A stretch of DNA of 45,170 bases, taken from assembly GCA_947253135.1 (NCBI GenBank), contig CAMXYS010000001.1, forward strand, positions 1 to 45,170, in the 5' to 3' direction. The notes beneath the pieces were generated by a model. That model searched no databases. It saw only the letters and a list, made by a program, of their open reading frames with translations, and had not been told where the DNA came from. Position numbers and translations under genes: made by a program. This DNA comes from an uncultured Clostridia bacterium. Its GTDB lineage: Bacteria > Bacillota > Clostridia > Saccharofermentanales > Fastidiosipilaceae. How positions within the stretch are numbered: position 1 is the stretch's first letter; each line of letters starts with the position of its first letter. Positions 4,641 to 14,442 of this stretch are shown piece after piece.

Positions 4641-4952
4641 TTAAGAATATAAAACGCTGATTGAATCAAAGATCTCGCCCATGCTTTTTCCATCAATAAC
4701 TTTGGCGGCTAAAAAGTTATCAATATTTTCATTTGCATCTTTATTGCTTGCTTCATAAAGCAACTCACACTTTACGGCCGGCTGACCATCAGCTTGATAG
4801 GCTCCCCAATCATAAAGTGACAAAGAATGCGTATTCATGGGCTCTTGTATCCATCCGGAATTTAAGGATAAAAAATTCCCCTGATACAAGATCTCCATGT
4901 CGACACCGTAGTAGAGTTTGTCGTAAAACTCCTTAAAAGAAATATTTGCCAT
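4641..4952 (-). CDS. Small hypothetical protein (103 aa), third gene of cassette 1; immunity/antitoxin-like by position
   Basis: AGGGGG SD upstream, and its start lies 2 nt after the upstream stop. Shares EFYDKLYYGVD...GW and GKS...E..I with the 91-aa protein at 6133..6408. I recognise no known domain. Confidence 0.6.
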   Translation of the reverse strand: MANISFKEFYDKLYYGVDMEILYQGNFLSLNSGWIQEPMNTHSLSLYDWGAYQADGQPAVKCELLYEASNKDANENIDNFLAAKVIDGKSMGEIFDSISVLYS

Positions 4953-4954
4953 CT

Positions 4955-5326
4955 TTAGAGCCCCCTAAAATACTTTTTGTACTTTTTGAATTCTTCTTCG
5001 GTCAGAAGTCTTCCTGAACGGTCACGACTTAAATTTGAATAAAAATGGATATGAAGGACAGGTCCGTGATGCCCTGCCAATTTAGGTTCTTTGTGGTAGT
5101 CAATATCAAACTTTGCTGTTTTATCAGCATTATATTCACGATAACGCTTAAATTTCCCCTCGTGATCCAGCAAAATATAAGCTCTGCTGGAATGCGCTTC
5201 TTCCGGTAGATTGATGGAGTCCTTTTTATTTAACTTTTCTAGAACTTTTACACCCTCGATTATATCAACTGTTTCGTAGGTAAAGGGAGCATAATTATCA
5301 GCGGCATAGGTTCCCCGTCCACCCAT
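4955..5326 (-). CDS. Small hypothetical protein (123 aa) with conserved N-terminus MGGRGTYAADNY, EEAHSSRAYI and an LHxH motif; toxin-like by context
   Basis: Its start overlaps the DUF4417-like stop (TAATG at 5324..5328). It is a paralogue of 6401..6781, with 29 of the first 31 residues identical and a divergent middle. YKKYFRG is conserved at the C-terminus. Confidence 0.6.
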   Translation of the reverse strand: MGGRGTYAADNYAPFTYETVDIIEGVKVLEKLNKKDSINLPEEAHSSRAYILLDHEGKFKRYREYNADKTAKFDIDYHKEPKLAGHHGPVLHIHFYSNLSRDRSGRLLTEEEFKKYKKYFRGL

Positions 5327-5952
5327 TATCTCACCACCTTTCGGCTGGACATATAATCCACTGTAACTAAGTTACCCTCCATTTCTTTGAAGGGCTTGCC
5401 AAAACAAATAATGGCAGCTGGATTGATTTTTTCTAACATGACTTGATAGCCACGTAAAAAGGGAAGTCGATTGGCTTTTTTTGCACCAATCATGCCCACT
5501 GCTACGATGGAGCCTTCCTCTACGCCATCAAAACAAAAATCAAAGCTTCGAGTGTCACCCCAACTAATAGAGGGGATGACTGTAGCACCTTGTGCTTGCC
5601 ACCAAGCCCCACACCAGCGATTTTTGGCAACATTTTCTAGCTGTCGCCACAAATCCATATCTGCATAAAGAGAAAAGTCAGGACTTAGAAGAAAGGTGTA
5701 TTGAGCATAGCGTGCCCAAGTTCTATTTGGATTATCATAGATCCCCTTAAAACGGTAGTCGTCAACAAAAAAGTGAACGCCTTTTTTTGTATGGATAGGA
5801 AGGTCATTCTTTTTTGTATCTGAACAAGCGATTAACTCGATCGGCTGCAATTCGATGGCTTGTTTATGAATGAGTGGCAGCTCATATTTGCCACTTTTAG
5901 TAAATTGATTTCTCATAAAAAGCGGATTTCTCCGCATGTCTGCACTTGTCAT
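5326..5952 (-). CDS. DUF4417-like protein (208 aa)
   Basis: HFFVDDYRF, LLSPDFSLYADMDLW, NRWCGAWWQAQGATVIPSISWGD..SFDFCFDG match my memory of the DUF4417 family consensus (DDY and PDFS motifs). AGGAGG SD at 5959..5964, 6 nt before ATG 5952. Confidence 0.65.
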   Translation of the reverse strand: MTSADMRRNPLFMRNQFTKSGKYELPLIHKQAIELQPIELIACSDTKKNDLPIHTKKGVHFFVDDYRFKGIYDNPNRTWARYAQYTFLLSPDFSLYADMDLWRQLENVAKNRWCGAWWQAQGATVIPSISWGDTRSFDFCFDGVEEGSIVAVGMIGAKKANRLPFLRGYQVMLEKINPAAIICFGKPFKEMEGNLVTVDYMSSRKVVR

Positions 5953-6089
5953 ATAGCGCCTCCTAAAAGCTTAAAGTTTTTTGTCGGATGTGCTACCATG
6001 ACCTTGCAGACGTGCGATAGCACATATGTGATAGCCTCTAATTTGTTGCCGCAAATTTGAGGCTTTAATTTTTTACTAAAAATATTGAA
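5943..6089. repeat. Direct repeat copy A (147 bp, identical to 6867..7013): 5' end of the DUF4417 gene plus leader/promoter-proximal region
   Basis: Base-by-base comparison shows 147/147 identity at an offset of 924 bp. Similarity continues with mismatches to about 5923 and 6098. Confidence 0.95.
6016..6063 (-). promoter_or_regulatory. Operator-like palindrome CACATATGTG (6021..6030, flanked by GATAGC direct repeats) and a hairpin with 12-nt arms (6034..6045 / 6052..6063, 11 of 12 paired) in the cassette leader; duplicated at 6940..6987
   Basis: Read directly from the sequence. It sits between the putative -10 (6079..6084) and the SD (5959..5964) on the minus strand. Confidence 0.4.
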
Positions 6090-6107
6090 CCGCCTATTTT
6101 AAGTCAA
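6079..6107 (-). promoter_or_regulatory. Putative sigma70-type promoter of cassette 1 (-35 TTGACT, 17-nt spacer, -10 TATTTT)
   Basis: On the minus strand TTGACT is 6107..6102 and TATTTT is 6084..6079. The -35 lies just outside the 147-bp repeat, so cassette 2 shares only the -10. Confidence 0.35.
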
Positions 6108-6132
6108 ATCAGAATTCATTGAGAATCCGACC

Positions 6133-6408
6133 TCAAGAATCGACCCATTCAATTTGGCCTTCTACCTGATAAAAGGATTTACCGGCAAAAAATTGCCCTT
6201 GTATAAAGGCGTCTACGCATTCAAGTCTATCTAAACTTGAATAATGCCAAACCGGAATGGATAAATTGCTTATATTAGTGAGCTCAATCGTGTATAGATC
6301 ATTCTTACACCAACCTTGAAGCAGATATTTATCGCCATTAAAGTAAAACCATAGATCTGTTCCGTAGTATAAGCTGTCAATAAAGTCGCCCGTATTTCCA
6401 TTAATCAT
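6133..6408 (-). CDS. Small hypothetical protein (91 aa), third gene of cassette 2; divergent paralogue of 4641..4952
   Basis: GAGGAGGG SD upstream, and an 8-nt overlap with the upstream gene. Shared DFIDSLYYGTD...GW motif. Confidence 0.55.
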   Translation of the reverse strand: MINGNTGDFIDSLYYGTDLWFYFNGDKYLLQGWCKNDLYTIELTNISNLSIPVWHYSSLDRLECVDAFIQGQFFAGKSFYQVEGQIEWVDS

Positions 6409-6781
6409 GGCACCCTCCTCTAAAATATTTTTGATATCTTTGATATAATCTCGATTTTTTCTTTATGGCAATAGCCGGTGATCGATTAAAAAACTCATCG
6501 TAAATGTGGTAATGAAGTATATTTTTTCGGCTTAAATCTAAGTTTGGTTCGGGGTGGTAAGCAATTTCAAGTCTTAAATATTTATTTGAATCATAAATTC
6601 TAATCTGGTGAAAGCTGCCATCCCGCTTTAATTTAATGTAGGCTCTGCTAGAATGTGCTTCTTCCGGTAGAGAATGCTTCCCGTCCAGGCCTTCCAGCAC
6701 TTTTACACCCTCGATTATATCAACTGTTTCATAGGTAAAGGGGACATAGTTGTCAGCAGCATAAGTTCCTCGTCCGCCCAT
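6401..6781 (-). CDS. Small hypothetical protein (126 aa), paralogue of 4955..5326 (MGGRGTYAADNY..., EEAHSSRAYI, LHYH, YQKYFRG)
   Basis: The same N-terminal 31 aa (29 identical) and the same TAATG coupling to the upstream reading frame. Confidence 0.6.
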   Translation of the reverse strand: MGGRGTYAADNYVPFTYETVDIIEGVKVLEGLDGKHSLPEEAHSSRAYIKLKRDGSFHQIRIYDSNKYLRLEIAYHPEPNLDLSRKNILHYHIYDEFFNRSPAIAIKKKSRLYQRYQKYFRGGCHD

Positions 6782-6876
6782 TATCTCACCACCTTTCGGC
6801 TGGCCATATATCGACCGGTAGTAAAGCAGTTTTTCTTTTTGGGGAACGGATTTCTCCGCAAGTTTTCACTTGTCAT
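6781..6876 (-). pseudogene. DUF4417 remnant: 31-codon in-frame deletion derivative (MTSENLRRNPFPKKKNCFTTGRYMASRKVVR*)
   Basis: Hand translation of the reverse complement. It keeps the N-terminus (MTS..RRNP) and C-terminus (YM.SRKVVR*) of the 208-aa protein. The homology offsets on either side (924 vs 1455) differ by 531 nt, which is 177 codons. The SD and the TAATG coupling are retained. Confidence 0.8.
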
Positions 6877-7013
6877 ATAGCGCCTCCTAAAAGCTTAAAG
6901 TTTTTTGTCGGATGTGCTACCATGACCTTGCAGACGTGCGATAGCACATATGTGATAGCCTCTAATTTGTTGCCGCAAATTTGAGGCTTTAATTTTTTAC
7001 TAAAAATATTGAA
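6867..7013. repeat. Direct repeat copy B (147 bp, identical to 5943..6089)
   Basis: See copy A. Confidence 0.95.
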
Positions 7014-7253
7014 TCACCTACTTTCTATTTCGATTTAATAACATGTGACAACACAATATAAGCATGAGAACAACATGTAGTCAAGTTAAAAGCACAATAT
7101 ATTGTGATCTGACGAGCTAGAAAGAACAACTTATTATGCTTCCTTCTAAAAGCCAAACAAGAATTCATCAAGAATTGATCTACTCATTTTGATCTTTCAT
7201 TCGCCAAGTATGGATATAATAAGTAAAAAGACGGCCTATAGGGGGGAATTAAG

Positions 7254-8060
7254 TTGGCTGACCGGATGACAGAAACAATCATCAAGAGTAAGCGACGCGT
7301 GCAAAAGCATGGCGAAGTTTTTACGCCTAAATGGATGGTAAACCGTATGCTTAATGAGCCCGGTATTAAGGAGGCCTGCCAAGACCCGGGAGCCCGCTTT
7401 TTGGAACCGGCAGCCGGCGAAGGGGCCTTTCTGAGGCAAATTTTGAAGCGTAAGCTCAAAGCGGTGACGGACCGGATCCAGGTCGGTCAGATAGACCAAG
7501 CCCCGCCTTCTTTTGAACAAATAGAAGGGCACCTGCTGCTAGCACTTTCGTCGCTTTATGGAATTGAATTGTTAGAAGACAATGCCCGCCAATGTGCCAT
7601 CAATCTTTTTTATAGCTTTACCAGAGCCTACGAAGCATATGCCAAGGCACAAGGTAGAAAAACGAGACCCGGCGTGCTTAAAAGTGCCCAATTTATCATC
7701 TCTAAAAATATAATGGAAGGTGATTTTTTAAAGAGGTCAAAGACAGATGGTCAAGCCATTATCTTTAGTGAATGGGAACCTTTACCGTCAGACCCAAAGC
7801 GCCGTCACCTTTATGTACAAAGGACGGAGTACAGCCTACAAGAGATTTATGACGGGCTTAAGTTGTCTCCCGGCCGCATCTACTGTGGCGAAACACCGGA
7901 GTCACCTAAGCAAATTTCCATCTTCGATTTATTAGCTCCATCAGCAGGGACTGAACAGGAGGTAATACCCGCGGAGCCGCTTGTAAGATACCAAGTTTGC
8001 CGAATTGACCGCGTCTATTTAGAGAAAGTTGAGGAAGTCCATGGACAAGACCTTAATTAG
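7254..8060 (+). CDS. Methyltransferase-fold protein (268 aa) with motif X and SAM motif I but no (D/N)PP(Y/F/W) catalytic motif
   Basis: GEVFTPKWMVNRML (motif X-like), FLEPAAGEGAFL (motif I), LYGIELLEDNARQCAINL (motif II-like), NIMEGDFL (motif III-like). Where FDxxxGNPPY is expected the sequence reads AIIFSEWEPL. TTG start at 7254, 7 nt after GGGGGG (an alternative ATG is at 7266). The 3' end overlaps the next gene by 20 nt. Confidence 0.7.
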   Translation: MADRMTETIIKSKRRVQKHGEVFTPKWMVNRMLNEPGIKEACQDPGARFLEPAAGEGAFLRQILKRKLKAVTDRIQVGQIDQAPPSFEQIEGHLLLALSSLYGIELLEDNARQCAINLFYSFTRAYEAYAKAQGRKTRPGVLKSAQFIISKNIMEGDFLKRSKTDGQAIIFSEWEPLPSDPKRRHLYVQRTEYSLQEIYDGLKLSPGRIYCGETPESPKQISIFDLLAPSAGTEQEVIPAEPLVRYQVCRIDRVYLEKVEEVHGQDLN

Positions 8061-11000
8061 GCCCTTCGAGCAAAGAGATTTAAAAATTTATGGCTACACC
8101 CTGCCGGAAGTGCCTAGCCATGACGGTTACATCAAGATTGGGGAGACCGGCCGTGATGTTAGGCAAAGAATTTTGGAACAGGTAGGGACTGCCGGTTTGA
8201 CGCCTGACATCCGCTTTCAAAGACGGGCACAAAAGGCCAATGGGGAATGGTTTCATGACAAGGATTTGCACCGCTACCTGATCGCCAGAGGCAAGCGCCG
8301 GGCAAATTTTGGCACGAGGGCGGACGAGTGGTTCTATTTTAACGGTGAGATCGACCAGGCTGAAGTTTATACGGATGACTTTATCGCTACAGGTGCAGCC
8401 ACACAGCAGCAAATCAGCCAAGATGAACGACTGGATTATACCCTGCGCCAAGAGCAGGCGATTGCGGTAGAGCAAACTTTTGCCTATTGGCAAACTCATA
8501 CGGCTGACCGGGAATTCTTGTGGAATGCTAAGCCCCGCTTTGGCAAAACATTAACGACTTATGATTTTATGCTTAAGATCGGGGCAAGAACGACCTTGAT
8601 CGTGACCAACCGGCCGGCTATTGCCAATTCCTGGTATGACGACTTCAGAAAATTTATCGGCTGGAAACAAGAAAAACGTCAATATTATTTTGTTTCCGGC
8701 ATGGAGGAGCTAATCCGAGCTGGGGCCCTCACTTATGAACAGTATATAGAAGTTATTCCCCAGATTGGCGAGGCTGATATCGGGTTGGTGGTTTTCCTTT
8801 CTTTACAGGATTTGAAGGGGGCTAAATTTGCCGGCGGCCCTTATGAAAAATTGGGCTGGGTGGCTGATTTTAAATGGGATCTCCTAGTGATTGACGAGGC
8901 CCATGAAGGGGTGGACACAGCCAAGACGGACCAAGCTTTCGACCGTATTGTAAGGGACTTTACTCTCCACTTGTCCGGCACGCCCTTCAAGGCCTTAGCG
9001 AATGAAAAATTTCAGGCGGACCAGATTTATAATTGGTCCTACTTGGACGAACAAAAGGCCAAGCAAGACTGGGATCCGACCCTTGATACCAACCCCTATG
9101 CACCCTTGCCTGCTTTAAGTCTTTTTACCTACCAGATGGGCAATTTGATTACAGACCGGATGCAGTCGGCCGCCCATACAGAAGAGGGGAATATCGATTT
9201 TACCTTTGACTTAAATGAATTTTTCAGGACAGATGAGCAGGGAAGCTTTGCCCATGAGGAGGCGGTCAAGTGTTTTTTAGACCGACTGACGAGTGGCCGG
9301 ATGCCTTTTTCGCCGACTGAATATTTACATGAATTAAACCATACTTTTTGGCTTTTGCCCCGGGTTGCAGCCTGCAAGGCAATGGAAAAGCTTTTACATA
9401 GGCACCCCGTCTTTAAGGACTATCAGACTGTCTTGGCAGCCGGAGATGGTGAAAGTTTGGCAGGGCCCTTGATAGAAGGTGAGGTCCTGCCCAGTGAGGT
9501 TGAGCAGGCCAAGCGAACCAGCAGCAGCTATGCCAAGGTAAAAGAAGCCATTAAAAACTGTGAAAAGACCATCACCTTGTCAGTTTCTCAGTTGACAACC
9601 GGGGTCACAGTGCCGGAGTGGACAGCAGTTTTGATGCTCAGCAATATTCAGTCACCGGCCCTTTATTTCCAGGCGGCCTTCCGCGCCCAAAATCCCTATG
9701 AATATGAGAAAAATGGGAAGCTTTTCCGGAAGGAAAATGCCTATGTTTTTGACTTCGCACCGGAGCGGACGCTGCTATTGTTTGATGAATTTGCCAACAA
9801 TTTGACTCCGGTTTCTAGGCTTAATAATGGCAGTCGGCAGGACAATATTCGGGAGCTTTTAAACTTCTTCCCGGTGATCGCAGCAGATGAGGCCGGTTAC
9901 ATGGAGGAGTTGGATGCTGCGGCAGTGCTGACTATCCCTCGGCGTTTAAAGGCCCAAGAGGTGGTACGGCAGGGCTTTATGTCCAACCTCTTGTTCCAAA
10001 ATATTGCCGGTATTTTTGCGGCACCTGCTTTTATAAAGGAAATTTTAGACAAGGTTAAGCCGGAAGAAAACAAGAAGCAGGCTAAGGAAAAAAGACCTAC
10101 GCGGATTGCAGACCTGGAGTTAGACCGGCAGGGGCAGGTGGTGGTCGATCAAGGCATTGTCATCAATAAGAAGAAAGACTTTTTTGGTGATAAGCTATAT
10201 GAGGCAGTTGAGCTTTCGGCCACAGCTACAGAGCGAAAAATTGTGAGCCAATTGATGGAACAGACCAGGCTCGGCTTAGAGAAGATGGGCCAGGCGGAGG
10301 GTTGGAAAGGCCGGGAATTACAACAACGGGAGAAGTGGTTTAGGGACAAGGCTGCGGCGGTGGTGGCGGAGGCTGTGGACTCCTATCAGGCAGACTTGAC
10401 AGCGGTTCATGAGGACTACCGGCAGGCTCTGGCTGACGTCCACGAGACAAGGACGGAAGAGGAAATCCGAGCGGCCAGAAATGAAGGGGAGGAGCGTGCT
10501 CGGCTAATACGGGATGAGGTTATTTTGGCCAGGGTGGAAGCTCTGCCTGAGGAATTGATTAAACGCGAAGAAGTCCGCAAGGAAGAAAAGAAGAAAAGGG
10601 ACAGTGAGGCGGATGTCAGAGACCACCTGCGTGGCTTTACCCGGTCTATACCGGCCTTTTTGATGGCCTATGGAAGTCCAGAAACCCGGTTAGCGACTTT
10701 CGAGCAAGGAATTGATCCGGCTACTTTTGAAGAAACGACCGGTATCAGCCTGGAAGAGTTTGAGCTTTTGCGAGATGGCTGCAATTTTGAAGATGAAGAA
10801 GGTAACCTCCAAGTCTTCAAGGGCTTTTTTGATGAATTAATCTTTGACCGCAGCATAGAGGAGTTTTTTCGTAAAAAGGAAGAACTGGCCGACTATTTTG
10901 ATGAGAATTTGATGGAGGATATCTTTGACTATATTCCGGAGCAAAAGACAAATCAGATTTATACACCTCGGGCAGTTGTTCGCCTGATGGCAGATGCTTT

Positions 11001-12369
11001 GGAAGAAGAAAATCCCGGTATCTTTTCAGATCCAAACCGAACCTTTGTCGACCTTTATACAAAGAGTGGACTTTATTTAACAGAGCTGGTAAAGCGGTTA
11101 AATGAGGGGCTGAAGAAAAAAATCCCGAACCGGTTTGACCGGATCCGTCATATTTTAGAAAAGCAGGTCTATGGATTGGCACCCAGCAATATTATCTACA
11201 ATATTGCAAGAAATTATGTCTATGGGATCCATGACAGTGTGGATATCAGTAACTTAGTCGAGTGGGACATGGCTCGGTCGGCCAAGGAAGAAAGTATGAT
11301 AGAAGACTTGCCCCAGGCCTTTGGAGGAAAAGAGATGAAGTTTGATGTGGTGATTGGCAATCCACCCTACCAGGAGGAGATGAAAGGAACGAGTGATCGC
11401 CCAATATATCCGGAGTTTATGGAGGGAGCTTATAGCTTAGCAGATAAGGTCATCCTTATAACGCCGGGACGATTCTTATTTAATGCTGGTAAAACAAGTA
11501 AGCAATGGAATCAAAAAATGCTCCACGATGAGCATTTAAAAGTGATTTTTTATGAACAAAAAAGTGGCAAAGTCTTTCCTAATACAGATATCAAGGGCGG
11601 GGTGACAGTTACCTATCGAGATGCAAACCAAAAATTTGGGGCAATTGAGGTTTTTTCAGCGCATCAAGAGTTGAACAATATTTTACACAAGGTACTTGAG
11701 TTAGGTGAGGAAAGTTTTAGCAGTTTAGTTTATTCACCTGAAAGTTATAAACTTACTAATCAACTCCATAAGGATTTTCCGGAAGTTGAGGGAAGACTTA
11801 GCAAAGGTCATAAGTATGATGTTACAACCAATATCTTCGAGAAATTGCCGGAGTTTTTTTTAGATGAGGTAGAAGATGAGAACGGTTATGTACGGATTTA
11901 CGGCCGTGAAAACAATTTAAGGCTTAGCAAATATATAAAGGAAGAATATATTAGCGGCCCAGAAAATTTTAAACACTACAAGATTTTTGTTCCTAAGTCT
12001 AATGGGTCAGGGGCAATTGGTGAAAGACTTAGTACGCCGCTTCTCGGCCCGCCGCTTCTCGGCCCGCCGCTTCTCGGCCATACCCAGACCTTCTTGAGCA
12101 TTGGCAATTTTGAAAATGAGAATGAAGCTGTGGCGTGTTTGAAGTACGTAAAAACGTGTTTTTGCCGCGTTATGTTGGGAGTCCTGAAGGTAACCCAAGA
12201 CAATAAAAAATCAACTTGGAAGTATGTCCCCTTGCAAGATTTTACTTCTAACTCTGATATCGACTGGTCTAAATCCGTTGCTGAGATCGACCGGCAACTG
12301 TACGCTAAATATAAGCTATCAGCTGATGAGATAGACTTTATCGAGACCAACGTCCAGCCAATGGAATAA
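8041..12369 (+). CDS. Multidomain protein (1442 aa from ATG 8041): GIY-YIG/T5orf172-like module, SF2 (ResIII/DEAH) ATPase, charged coiled-coil linker, Eco57I-like N6-adenine DNA methyltransferase and a C-terminal specificity-like region
   Basis: Residues are numbered from the ORF-track start 8029. KIYGY...GYIKIGETGRDVRQRILEQ...EWFYF at about aa 18-105. Helicase motif I PRFGKT (GKT codons from 8542), motif II DEAH (from 8893), SGTPF, and QAAFRAQNP (motif VI-like). A KE-rich segment at about aa 680-870. IYTPRAVVRLM (motif X), FVDLYTKSGLYL (motif I-like), GNPPYQ (NPPY = 11359..11370). GAGGA SD at 8031..8035 favours ATG 8041 over the track's TTG 8029. Confidence 0.85.
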   Translation: MDKTLIRPFEQRDLKIYGYTLPEVPSHDGYIKIGETGRDVRQRILEQVGTAGLTPDIRFQRRAQKANGEWFHDKDLHRYLIARGKRRANFGTRADEWFYFNGEIDQAEVYTDDFIATGAATQQQISQDERLDYTLRQEQAIAVEQTFAYWQTHTADREFLWNAKPRFGKTLTTYDFMLKIGARTTLIVTNRPAIANSWYDDFRKFIGWKQEKRQYYFVSGMEELIRAGALTYEQYIEVIPQIGEADIGLVVFLSLQDLKGAKFAGGPYEKLGWVADFKWDLLVIDEAHEGVDTAKTDQAFDRIVRDFTLHLSGTPFKALANEKFQADQIYNWSYLDEQKAKQDWDPTLDTNPYAPLPALSLFTYQMGNLITDRMQSAAHTEEGNIDFTFDLNEFFRTDEQGSFAHEEAVKCFLDRLTSGRMPFSPTEYLHELNHTFWLLPRVAACKAMEKLLHRHPVFKDYQTVLAAGDGESLAGPLIEGEVLPSEVEQAKRTSSSYAKVKEAIKNCEKTITLSVSQLTTGVTVPEWTAVLMLSNIQSPALYFQAAFRAQNPYEYEKNGKLFRKENAYVFDFAPERTLLLFDEFANNLTPVSRLNNGSRQDNIRELLNFFPVIAADEAGYMEELDAAAVLTIPRRLKAQEVVRQGFMSNLLFQNIAGIFAAPAFIKEILDKVKPEENKKQAKEKRPTRIADLELDRQGQVVVDQGIVINKKKDFFGDKLYEAVELSATATERKIVSQLMEQTRLGLEKMGQAEGWKGRELQQREKWFRDKAAAVVAEAVDSYQADLTAVHEDYRQALADVHETRTEEEIRAARNEGEERARLIRDEVILARVEALPEELIKREEVRKEEKKKRDSEADVRDHLRGFTRSIPAFLMAYGSPETRLATFEQGIDPATFEETTGISLEEFELLRDGCNFEDEEGNLQVFKGFFDELIFDRSIEEFFRKKEELADYFDENLMEDIFDYIPEQKTNQIYTPRAVVRLMADALEEENPGIFSDPNRTFVDLYTKSGLYLTELVKRLNEGLKKKIPNRFDRIRHILEKQVYGLAPSNIIYNIARNYVYGIHDSVDISNLVEWDMARSAKEESMIEDLPQAFGGKEMKFDVVIGNPPYQEEMKGTSDRPIYPEFMEGAYSLADKVILITPGRFLFNAGKTSKQWNQKMLHDEHLKVIFYEQKSGKVFPNTDIKGGVTVTYRDANQKFGAIEVFSAHQELNNILHKVLELGEESFSSLVYSPESYKLTNQLHKDFPEVEGRLSKGHKYDVTTNIFEKLPEFFLDEVEDENGYVRIYGRENNLRLSKYIKEEYISGPENFKHYKIFVPKSNGSGAIGERLSTPLLGPPLLGPPLLGHTQTFLSIGNFENENEAVACLKYVKTCFCRVMLGVLKVTQDNKKSTWKYVPLQDFTSNSDIDWSKSVAEIDRQLYAKYKLSADEIDFIETNVQPME
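12035..12079 (+). repeat. Perfect 3 x 15-bp in-frame tandem repeat (CGCCGCTTCTCGGCC) encoding (P)LLGPPLLGPPLLG inside the C-terminal region of the fusion protein
   Basis: Counted base by base: the units are 12035..12049, 12050..12064 and 12065..12079, all identical. Confidence 0.95.
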
Positions 12370-12497: not shown

Positions 12498-13955
12498 ATG
12501 GAGACAAAGGACCTGATTGATAGTTTCGATCCCTATGAACTTGCTAGCCGCAAAGAAGGGCAAACCTTTGAGCGGAAGAGCGCTCGGAAAAAACCAAAGG
12601 ATATTGCGCCTACTATTATCGCCTTTGCCAATACTGACGGTGGTGTTCTGGCCATTGGTATTGAAGATGACAGCACTTTGTCGGGCACCTCTTTTCAAGG
12701 TGCTTATACTTTAGATGACTATAAGGCCGCCATTAATAGTAATATTAAGGACCTACCGAATCTAGGATTCCATACGATCCCTTTTAAAGGAAAAGGATTG
12801 GAAGATAAAACTGATTATATTTATGTTATTACGGTCGAACTGTCGCGAAAACGAGTGGTGGCAGATGTGAGTGGGAAGGTATTTCTTCGCATTGGGGATA
12901 AAAGTCTGGTTCAGTCGCCGGCCCAAGTACAGCGTCTACAGTATGCTAAAGGTGAGCGCTTATATGAAGATAAAATAATAGACGAAGCATCTATTAAAGA
13001 TCTCGACACAGAATTACTTAATCGATACAAAAAACATAACAAGGCGGAGCAGTTGAGTGATGAACAAGTTCTTTCAGCTCGCGGGTTCATTCGTGACGGA
13101 CACTTGACTGCTTCAGCAATATTGATGTTCGGGAATAATCCTTTCATTTATCTGCCCCAATGCCGGCTACGCTTCCTGCGTTACGAAGGCGGAACTAAAG
13201 AAACCGGTGCTCGGATGAACTTGGTAAAAGATATAAATATTGAAGGAGCTTTGCCGCATATGATACGTGAGGCAGAGCAGGTCATTAAAAGCCAGTTGAG
13301 AGAATTCCAATTTTTGGGAGAAGATGGCCGTTTTAAAATTGTTCCGGAATATCCTGAGTTCGCCTGGCTCGAAGGAGTGGTTAATGCTCTTGTTCATCGC
13401 GATTATTCAATAACGGGTGACTACATAAGAGTCAGCATGTACGATGACCGGTTGGAAATCTTCAGTCCGGGAGCTTTGCCGGATATTGTAACGATAAAAA
13501 ATATGCGTTATACCCGTTTTGCTAGAAATCCTAGAATTGCCCGAGCTTTATCAGAATTTGGCTGGGTGAGGGAACTCAATGAAGGTGTTAACCGCATTTA
13601 TGATGAAATGAATCAATTTTTCCTTAAAGACCCTATTTATAGTGAGCCTAACCGCCATTCGGTACAGTTGAAATTAGAGAACAACTATGTATTGCGCCAC
13701 CAGAGAATCAATGAGAAAATCGATGAATTGCAAGGGCAGTTGTCATCGGACGCATTTAGCCCTAATGAGCGAAAGATTTTAGCTTATCTCTATAGCAATG
13801 AAAGTATCAATGTGCAAAAGGCATCAGAATTAATTGCGATGAGTGCTCCCAGTGCCCGCAAAATATTACGAGAACTTCTCAAAAAAGAGGCCGTGCAGTG
13901 GTTTGGTAATTCCGCCCGCGATCCCAAGCAATTCTATACTTGGCCGAGCCGGTAG
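12498..13955 (+). CDS. AlbA_2 (Schlafen-like) + HATPase_c_4 (RecG-C-terminal-like) + C-terminal wHTH-like protein, 485 aa
   Basis: The N-terminus ESFDPYELASRKEGQTFERKSA...IIAFANTDGGVLAIGIEDD is typical of AlbA_2 domains. EGVVNALVHRDYSITGDYIRVSMYDDRLEIFSPGALP is typical of the family usually annotated 'ATP-dependent DNA helicase RecG-like / putative transcriptional regulator'. AAGGAGAG SD before ATG 12498. Confidence 0.8.
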   Translation: METKDLIDSFDPYELASRKEGQTFERKSARKKPKDIAPTIIAFANTDGGVLAIGIEDDSTLSGTSFQGAYTLDDYKAAINSNIKDLPNLGFHTIPFKGKGLEDKTDYIYVITVELSRKRVVADVSGKVFLRIGDKSLVQSPAQVQRLQYAKGERLYEDKIIDEASIKDLDTELLNRYKKHNKAEQLSDEQVLSARGFIRDGHLTASAILMFGNNPFIYLPQCRLRFLRYEGGTKETGARMNLVKDINIEGALPHMIREAEQVIKSQLREFQFLGEDGRFKIVPEYPEFAWLEGVVNALVHRDYSITGDYIRVSMYDDRLEIFSPGALPDIVTIKNMRYTRFARNPRIARALSEFGWVRELNEGVNRIYDEMNQFFLKDPIYSEPNRHSVQLKLENNYVLRHQRINEKIDELQGQLSSDAFSPNERKILAYLYSNESINVQKASELIAMSAPSARKILRELLKKEAVQWFGNSARDPKQFYTWPSR

Positions 13956-14213
13956 ATTTTCGAGTAGATTTCATGATTTTCGAGTAGATTGAAATAAAAT
14001 GGTGTGGAACATCCAAGATAAAGCGTGAAACGGCTATAGGATTGAGCCTTTGTCTTCTTTTTTATGATTTTCGAGTAGATTTCATGATTTTCGAGTAGAT
14101 TTCGAGAAAACAGCGTGGAACATTCAAAATTAAGCGTGAAACGTCTGTAATATAAGACTGTTCACCACTGCCTCCGCCATTTTCGAGTAGATTTCATGAT
14201 TTTCGAGTAAAAT
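13955..14213. repeat. Iteron-like array: six copies of GATTTTCGAGTAGATT in three pairs, interleaved with paired AGCGTG(G/A)AAC motifs; unit of about 111 bp
   Basis: The 16-mer copies start at 13955, 13975, 14066, 14086, 14178 and 14198 (the last is degenerate). Spacing is 20 bp within pairs and 111-112 bp between pairs. The second motif occurs at 14001, 14022, 14112 and 14133 (21 bp apart, 111-bp register), with a degenerate copy at 14274. The first copy abuts the stop codon of the upstream gene. Confidence 0.9.
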
Positions 14214-14442
14214 CAGATGTATTTATTCGCTCGCTCTTGCGGGCTTGGCGGCAAGCTTTGCCATCTTGAAAAAAGCGTGACGGTAAGGTCTAAAGGCCTC
14301 TATATGAAGGTCAAAGTGAGAGAAAAGCCCAACTAGACAAAGTCCCGGTTTAAAAAGTTGATTGTTAGAAAAAGCGCTGGCCTAAGTGGGCTGCCGCTTT
14401 TCACTATAATAAAAAGAAAAGAAGAAATAGAGTGACCAGACC

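Follow-up and report, generated by a model that had tools for sequence, protein, structure and literature searches.

Type ISP restriction-modification (RM) enzymes such as LlaGI and LlaBIII combine, in one chain of ~1450-1570 amino acids (aa), a nuclease of the Mrr/PD-(D/E)xK type, a superfamily 2 (SF2) ATPase, a connector, a gamma-class N6-adenine (N6A) methyltransferase and a target-recognition domain (TRD). To our knowledge, every ATP-dependent restriction enzyme characterised to date (Types I, III and ISP) cuts with a PD-(D/E)xK nuclease. Here, we analysed a 45,170-nucleotide (nt) stretch of DNA from an uncultured Clostridia bacterium (contig CAMXYS010000001.1; hereafter the window), which carries two overlapping genes that we term S and L. 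L shares the single-chain layout of Type ISP enzymes and places a T5orf172 domain of the GIY-YIG superfamily in the nuclease position; S encodes half of a methyltransferase. We propose, with a probability of roughly 60%, that S and L constitute an RM-type defence system of two genes that depends on ATP and uses T5orf172 as its nuclease. The proposal builds on the domain composition, the conserved ATPase, NPPY and GIY-YIG-type residues, the linkage of S and L, the fission, fusion and permutation of the methyltransferase, the exchange of a specificity cassette, and the mobile-element and defence-island contexts in which the pair is found.

The three functional domain families of S and L recur in the DnmA(YeeA)-YeeB-YeeC cluster, a likeness drawn from domain families alone. 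Morgan et al. (2009) described the nuclease-less MmeI homologue YeeA flanked by the DEAD helicase YeeB and the GIY-YIG protein YeeC, and also pointed to "large single polypeptides", uncharacterised, that unite an endonuclease, a helicase, a methyltransferase and a TRD (PMC2731913). The cluster has been proposed as an ATP-dependent RM-like system using single-strand N6-methyladenine (m6A) (PMC2731913, PMC9973331). In Bacillus subtilis, dnmA-yeeB-yeeC methylates GACGAG (PMC9973331), and three-gene homologues of DnmA/YeeA, YeeB and YeeC are reported to affect the phage sensitivity of Vibrio crassostreae (PMC9973331), which speaks in favour of a defence role. Unlike S and L, the cluster consists of three separate proteins that keep nuclease and helicase apart, and no half-methylase of the S type has been reported for it.

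Other systems share parts of the architecture. Type IIG/IIL enzymes (Eco57I, MmeI, DrdV) contain an Eco57I-family gamma methyltransferase with a fused TRD as L does; in contrast to L with its invariant SF2 ATPase, they have no ATPase motor, and their nuclease is of the PD-(D/E)xK type. Type III enzymes such as EcoP15I Mod/Res resemble the pair in coupling a ResIII-type SF2 ATPase to a nuclease and in employing an m6A methylase that carries a TRD, and the name 'type III restriction endonuclease subunit M' has been given to some S homologues. However, the Res nuclease is a C-terminal PD-(D/E)xK domain, whereas T5orf172 is N-terminal in L, and Mod is a dimer of beta-class methyltransferases, whereas L follows the gamma motif order. 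We know of no half-methylase partner in Type III systems. Odn (Gp88) of phage ICP1 and related T5orf172 homing-type nucleases share the T5orf172 Pfam domain, in which Arg and Glu are conserved; unlike L, Odn is a small nuclease that is site-directed, has a RepA-like DNA-binding domain, and lacks motor and methylase. Finally, CamA of Clostridioides difficile and PglX/BrxX of BREX combine a methyltransferase with a C-terminal DNA-recognition domain and gave the best structural matches to aa 860-1442 of L. CamA is an orphan methylase, PglX belongs to a six-gene BREX system, and neither has a fused motor, a fused nuclease or a split Rossmann fold. A literature search, which did not cover REBASE, yielded no paper on the S and L architecture or on a permuted methyltransferase.

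Domain architecture of L

L lies in a single uninterrupted open reading frame (ORF) at 8029-12369 of the forward strand. Because homologues begin with MDKT.IKPF, its start is the ATG at 8041. An earlier interpretation of this DNA from its letters and ORFs (the sequence-only reading) had described L with a series of motifs, every one of which we located. The N-terminal motifs are KIYGY (aa 15-19), YIKIGETGRDVRQRILEQ (aa 30-47) and EWFYF (aa 96-100); those of the ATPase are PRFGKT (aa 165-170), DEAH (aa 285-288), SGTPF (aa 312-316) and QAAFRAQNP (aa 544-552); and those of the methyltransferase are IYTPRAVV (aa 973-980), DLYTKSGLYL (aa 1004-1013) and GNPPYQ (aa 1106-1111). Only the 12-residue spacer given for the N-terminal pattern needed correction, as 10 residues lie between KIYGY and YIKIG. 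Pfam assigned ResIII to aa 133-316, N6_Mtase to aa 968-1115 and Eco57I to aa 1041-1179. Motifs, Pfam and Foldseek agree on the order already put forward, i.e., a nuclease-like module, an SF2 ATPase, a linker, a gamma N6A methyltransferase and a TRD (Table 1). Since full-length homologues of 40-63% identity occur across many phyla, we judge this architecture to lie far beyond chance.

The first 129 aa of L, scanned alone, match T5orf172 (PF10544) with an E-value of 9e-4 and 20.2 bits at a cut-off of 20. Within the family, we aligned 32 N-domains from diverse phyla, ranging from Bacillota to Bacteroidota and Saccharibacteria. T5orf172 was matched by 28 of them (best E-value 3e-7) and MUG113 by 18, both being families of the GIY-YIG clan. 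Ten residues are invariant in this alignment: Y17, K32, G34, R43, I44, F71, D73, H77, E96 and W97. From these we propose Y17, K32 (at the position of the YIG tyrosine), R43, H77 and E96 as a candidate catalytic set, where we take Y17 to be the GIY tyrosine, R43 the catalytic arginine and E96 the metal-binding glutamate of the established GIY-YIG mechanism. An AlphaFold model of the N-domain, with a predicted local distance difference test (pLDDT) score of 81, displays the order b-b-a-b-a-(b)-a expected from GIY-YIG topology; our AlphaFold models were built from shallower alignments than the cross-phylum set. A Foldseek search of BFVD with this model returned dozens of viral T5orf172/GIY-YIG models at a probability of 1.0 (E-values 5e-4 to 1e-2). 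Judging from Pfam, predicted topology and the viral matches, the N-terminal module is T5orf172/GIY-YIG, as the sequence-only reading had recognised. A profile search of PDB sequences with the N-domain produced no meaningful match, and a word-indexed homologue search with its 120 aa recovered only 12 fragments, which were uninformative about other architectures.

The motor is well conserved, with a mean pairwise identity of 71% and with Walker A (PRFGKT), DEAH, SGTP and QAAFR all invariant in L homologues. The linker that follows is the least conserved segment of L (31% mean pairwise identity, few gaps) and probably forms a coiled-coil spacer; the family profile gave only weak coiled-coil-type PDB matches. 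Identity returns to 71% in the helical domain preceding the methyltransferase. An AlphaFold model of aa 860-1442 (pLDDT 89) aligned full-length in Foldseek to gamma-class adenine methyltransferases with a C-terminal recognition domain, and the motif order X-I-...-IV of L is that of the gamma class. The matches comprise CamA (1e-14), PglX/BrxX (PglX 2e-11), M.BseCI, DrdV and MmeI as well as the Type ISP enzymes LlaBIII (4xqk, 2e-10) and LlaGI (5ffj, 4.5e-10).

The sequence-only reading had envisaged a nuclease swap within the Type ISP family. Taken literally, this is not supported: neither phmmer with L nor a 30-sequence family profile gave a match among all PDB chains, 4xqk and 5ffj included. 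What L has in common with LlaGI and LlaBIII is the methyltransferase-TRD fold only, with no sequence-level relation and no detectable homology across motor and coupler. Both groups contain near-identical enzymes that differ mainly in the TRD (see below). Unlike Type ISP, however, L has a T5orf172/GIY-YIG module as nuclease and a long and variable linker, S is obligatory, and about half of the loci have a methyltransferase that is naturally split or permuted. L thus resembles Type ISP in layout and is not a member of that family.

Table 1 Coordinates of genes S and L and of the segments of L in the window.
Feature	Position (nt)	Strand	Remarks
Gene S	7254..8060	+	268 aa from TTG 7254, or 264 aa from ATG 7266
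Gene L	8041..12369	+	1442 aa; T5orf172, SF2 ATPase, linker, helical domain, N' half, catalytic half, TRD, conserved tail
T5orf172/GIY-YIG-superfamily domain	8068..8400	+	aa ~10-120; Pfam, invariant residues, AlphaFold, BFVD Foldseek
SF2 ATPase/translocase	8428..10050	+	aa ~130-670; Pfam ResIII 5e-11, weak SNF2
Linker	10078..10614	+	aa ~680-858; charged, helical, poorly conserved
Helical domain before methyltransferase	10618..10920	+	aa ~860-960; AlphaFold helices H2-H105 (model aa 860-1442)
N' half	10921..11325	+	aa ~961-1095; divergent half for S-adenosylmethionine (SAM) binding
Catalytic half of methyltransferase with KFDVVIGNPPYQ	11326..11625	+	aa 1096-1195; Pfam Eco57I; first part of cassette C
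Variable TRD	11626..12225	+	aa ~1196-1395; identity drop between homologues, Foldseek
Perfect in-frame 15-bp tandem repeat, three copies (CGCCGCTTCTCGGCC, encoding PLLGP x3)	12035..12079	+	inside TRD region
Conserved C-terminal tail	12226..12366	+	aa 1396-1442; identity back to 90-97% in mosaic pairs

Gene S and the split, permuted methyltransferase

S is situated upstream of L and had not been included in the sequence-only reading. The two genes overlap by 20 nt at the stop of S and the start of L, the pair is translationally coupled, and a putative ribosome-binding site (AGGGGGG) sits 7 nt upstream of the TTG start of S. Motifs X (KHGEVFTP), I (LEPAAGEGAFL) and II (YGIELLEDN) as well as GDFL are present in the protein and do not vary among 16 homologues, and it lacks NPPY. 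By these motifs, S corresponds to the SAM-binding N-half alone of a gamma N6A methyltransferase. An exhaustive search identified 756 representatives of S-like proteins at E<=1e-10, almost all of 200-290 aa. Annotation pipelines name S 'N-6 DNA methylase' or after the Type III subunit mentioned above despite the missing NPPY half, and counts of methyltransferases derived from such names will be inflated.

S is related to the N' half of L (hhalign probability 96%, E-value 2e-9), which has diverged at the positions expected to contact SAM. In N', motif X reads TNQIYTP, motif I (DLYTKSGLYL) has an invariant K-S-G replacing G-x-G, and motif II (YGLAPS) lacks the ribose-binding acid and has an invariant Ala-Pro in its place; an invariant D1076 is kept after strand 3. 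Because K-S-G and Ala-Pro are themselves invariant, these degenerate features are selected rather than drifting.

To call the layouts of the system, we ran module hidden Markov models on 85 loci, where R denotes an L that ends exactly before KFDVVIGNPPYQ and cassette C comprises the catalytic half plus TRD (aa 1096-1442). The arrangement of the window, S followed by L, was found in 25 loci, and S lies downstream of L in another nine. In 16 loci, an S'-C fusion precedes R. The three modules occur as separate ORFs in the order S, R, C with overlapping stops and starts in nine loci, and in the order S, C, R in six, plus three that are cut by the contig end. Overall, modules are divided over two to three ORFs in about half of the loci, C forms an ORF of its own in about 15, and S adjoins the system or is fused to it in nearly all of them. 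The sequence-only reading had likened L to single-polypeptide enzymes. L does contain nuclease, ATPase, methyltransferase and TRD in one chain; however, neither the conservation of S nor the division of modules supports a single-polypeptide system. When all neighbours in the 85 loci were clustered, no conserved neighbour other than S emerged. ORFs of ~1085 aa in Streptococcus were considered as frameshifted L genes; this was rejected, since the position of their last residue is shared by many species and the C that they lack is either fused to S' upstream or present as its own ORF with overlapping stop and start.

These layouts indicate a natural division of the methyltransferase Rossmann fold, with the split lying between motifs III and IV. 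Cassette C can join covalently to either of two paralogous SAM-binding halves, S or N'. We favour S as the half completing the active site because the set of canonical SAM contacts is complete in S but not in N'; a monomer AlphaFold model packs N' against C. As there are two SAM-binding halves for one cassette, which in nature is fused to either half or to neither, the cassette might pair alternately, with S in a methylation-competent state and with N' in a state coupled to motor and nuclease, so that partner exchange or an S:N' pseudo-dimer would switch between modification and restriction and sense SAM. We offer this idea as speculation and do not expect it to prove correct. The most novel aspect of the system is the duplication of the SAM-binding half together with a methyltransferase that is split, permuted and equipped with an exchangeable cassette, which could offer a route to engineered split or programmable methyltransferases. 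Pieces of the system are already catalogued, though apparently not as a defined type: of the REBASE-derived PADLOC models, REase_MTase_IIG matches only the C-terminal ~365 aa of L (aa 1077-1440), and MTase_II strongly matches the S' and C modules. A methylome study of D. pigrum mentions REBASE 'Type IIG' single-polypeptide systems (CCAGT, GACAG), which might belong to this family.

Cassette C is also where close relatives differ. Among the 120 closest L homologues, many pairs keep 95-100% identity from the nuclease through motor and linker to N', and the same pairs display 36-78% identity at aa 1096-1195 and 15-33% at aa 1196-1325. In all pairs examined, identity breaks off at aa ~1096, and some pairs regain 90-97% identity past aa ~1395. 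Among the 40 pairs that exceed 95% identity across aa 1-1090, 26 drop to <60% in aa 1100-1442. S tracks the backbone and not the cassette. This pattern is cassette exchange, the signature of restriction specificity diversification, and represents the strongest comparative argument for a defence role. Near-identical LlaGI and LlaBIII likewise differ mainly in the TRD (PMC3553950). The exchangeable cassette with its split methyltransferase is a ready system for studying the swapping of specificity modules. Within the TRD region, copies of the PLLGP repeat number three in the L of the window, two in an otherwise 100% identical protein (P0001) and one to three in close homologues. Such copy changes may reflect slipped-strand length variation that tunes recognition or makes it phase-varying.

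Proposed function and competing explanations

In the mechanism we propose, the TRD would read a short, probably asymmetric DNA site, and the catalytic half with NPPY, together with a SAM-binding half that completes it, would place m6A on host DNA. On unmethylated foreign DNA, the SF2 motor would hydrolyse ATP and translocate or loop double-stranded DNA, and the N-terminal T5orf172 nuclease would then nick or cut, probably distant from the site. By analogy to Types ISP, I and III, cleavage would probably need two enzymes or repeated nicking. If this is true, the pair would have a translocating motor equipped with a single-metal nickase of the GIY-YIG type, and would allow a test of whether cleavage coupled to collision depends on the chemistry of the nuclease.

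Several points weigh against this proposal. Methylation, ATPase activity, cleavage and defence by S and L are all inferred. With its SAM-binding half degenerate, L alone may not methylate. In B. subtilis, dnmA-yeeB-yeeC gave no phage protection and no transformation barrier (PMC9973331). Concerning the nuclease, the YIG tyrosine is replaced by the invariant K32, and the Asn of GIY-YIG enzymes is only partly conserved (N, D or other in the 32 sequences). Of the catalytic residues that the sequence-only reading had named, Tyr (Y17), Arg (R43) and Glu (E96) are invariant and Asn is not. Structural comparison with GIY-YIG proteins gave a similarly divided result, succeeding with predicted viral models and failing with solved structures: Foldseek of the N-domain model against the PDB returned nothing significant (best E-value 1.3), with At-HIGLE at a probability of 0.18. 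Moreover, T5orf172 was first proposed, and has also been annotated, as a DNA-binding domain (PMC8096241).

The last two points would fit restriction without cleavage in a BREX-like manner, in which the system methylates self DNA, the motor blocks replication or evicts proteins on unmodified DNA, and T5orf172 serves DNA binding or regulation. The methyltransferase-TRD fold, being as close to PglX/BrxX of BREX as to Type ISP, speaks for this explanation as well. However, the invariance of Tyr, Arg and Glu together with Lys and His across phyla is hard to explain by DNA binding, and T5orf172 is a proven nuclease in Odn of phage ICP1, where the E180A exchange of the equivalent Glu abolishes cleavage (PMC8263062). 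Because catalytic-type residues are invariant, a DNA-binding, non-catalytic T5orf172, which had been raised at the outset, is disfavoured, yet it stays a rival. A catalytic role of the module in L is likely, and we regard restriction without cleavage as unlikely.

Alternatively, S and L might serve the establishment of a mobile element, being expressed early after transfer and shielding the element from the restriction systems of the recipient rather than defending the host. P1 DarB and leading-region methylases are models for such an anti-restriction role. In Listeria and B. subtilis, the pair resides on a small rpsI-integrated element beside RadC, an FtsK-like translocase and an integrase, and 45 of the 92 plasmid records carrying the system are conjugative or mobilizable. 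On the other hand, 46 of the 92 are non-mobilizable, the copy in the window lies in a chromosomal island without integrase or transfer genes, and neighbours at other loci are varied and often defence genes. Defence systems commonly travel as cargo of mobile elements, and a conserved nuclease domain together with rapid TRD exchange better fits restriction specificity. We consider an establishment role quite improbable. A decayed or orphan system, in which the methyltransferase alone would work in epigenetic regulation and motor and nuclease are relics, has a precedent in the same conclusion for B. subtilis dnmA-yeeB-yeeC (PMC9973331) and could draw on the degenerate motif II of N', but is very improbable given the intact 1442-codon ORF, the ATPase, nuclease-type and NPPY residues that are invariant in horizontally spread homologues of many phyla, and the invariant, hence selected, K-S-G and Ala-Pro. 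An RM-type function with T5orf172 as nuclease is the explanation we retain.

Distribution and genomic setting

The S and L system is not unique to the window but widespread. L has >8000 database relatives, and the best 120 of them are full-length (1420-1458 aa) and 50-63% identical, their hosts including Listeria, Enterococcus, Bacillus, Staphylococcus and Aerococcaceae. NCBI gives L the name 'Eco57I restriction-modification methylase domain-containing protein', and 'restriction endonuclease' is among the names of its relatives. A scan of one genome per species yielded at least 546 loci with 39-55% identity over the whole length, in Bacillota, Actinomycetota, Bacteroidota, Planctomycetota, Saccharibacteria, Pasteurellaceae and Moraxella, a distribution that implies extensive horizontal transfer. 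The architecture is therefore not rare, and the combination of PF10544 with a Type III Res helicase already stands on the RM-associated lists of Makarova 2011 and Doron 2018 (PMC7251935). The plasmids carrying the system include 39 from Enterococcus, some with optrA, and nine from Lactococcus, whereas phage genomes almost never contain it. By its presence on Enterococcus plasmids with optrA, dairy Lactococcus plasmids and Listeria integrative elements, the family could influence gene exchange and resistance to phages among bacteria of medical and industrial importance.

Individual loci add to this picture. In Listeria monocytogenes and B. subtilis (L001-L004), S and L are cargo of a small element integrated beside rpsI, which also carries a tyrosine integrase, an FtsK/DUF87-like protein, several small ORFs and RadC; the two genera share this element backbone. 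Defence neighbours at other relatives are an ApeA-type HEPN protein and an NB-ARC protein. In several Streptococcus loci, a 316-aa abortive-infection-like Abi_2 gene lies between the S'-C and R genes (L043:11158-12108; L047, L061, L065). This insertion resembles Abi genes embedded in Type I RM operons. More distant relatives retain S as well, two of them being examples. One, in Lactococcus cremoris p1196B (L090), belongs to a subfamily on dairy plasmids and combines S with a 1456-aa L that has an extra N-terminal DUF4145. The other, in Mycobacteroides chelonae pMchErm55 (L091), consists of S, a 536-aa N'-C methylase with K-S-G again as motif I, and an 868-aa T5orf172-helicase annotated 'GIY-YIG nuclease family protein', with TIR and HIT genes adjacent. 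A full-length S and L pair with 53% identity to the window protein was also found in a metagenome-assembled genome labelled Candidatus Methanofrustulum, an archaeon (L005), which is either an inter-domain transfer or a binning artefact.

In the window, the G+C content falls between ~4.6 and 14.3 kb. This low-GC island contains, in order, small minus-strand ORFs, S, L and an AlbA_2/Schlafen-HATPase_c_4-HTH gene. GAPDH-like, phosphoglycerate kinase and transketolase genes flank it on the left, and hydrolase, glutamate dehydrogenase and thiamine-synthesis genes on the right; with housekeeping genes on both sides, a phage origin of the region was rejected. Within the window, we found no tRNA, integrase or att-like or flanking direct repeats delimiting the island and no transfer genes in it, and promoter and terminator scans performed no better than on shuffled sequence. 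Phage and plasmid collections held no near-identical DNA.

The left part of the island (4641-7024) is duplicated internally: 178 nt at 5923-6100 recur at 6847-7024 with 97% identity, and 119 nt at 5237-5355 recur at 6692-6810 with 90% identity. The duplications yield two paralogous small minus-strand ORFs (4955-5326 and 6401-6781) with a common upstream region, and a DUF4417/phrog_940 'nuclease' ORF (5326-5952) follows one of the two. The small ORFs are not conserved with S and L among the neighbours in the 85 loci. Downstream of L, the gene at 12498-13955 encodes a 485-aa protein with AlbA_2/Schlafen, HATPase_c_4 and winged helix-turn-helix domains, which matches the N-terminal part of a PADLOC model associated with prokaryotic Argonautes (pAgo; 2e-40) and also phrog_12156. 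It was not kept beside S and L elsewhere in the clustered neighbours of the 85 loci, and is possibly an independent defence or regulatory gene in the same island. Directly 3' of this gene, at the right edge of the low-GC island, positions 13955-14220 contain direct repeats of ~20 nt (GATTTTCGAGTAGATTTCAT) and longer units of 84 nt in an array that might be iteron-like, regulatory or the end of an element.

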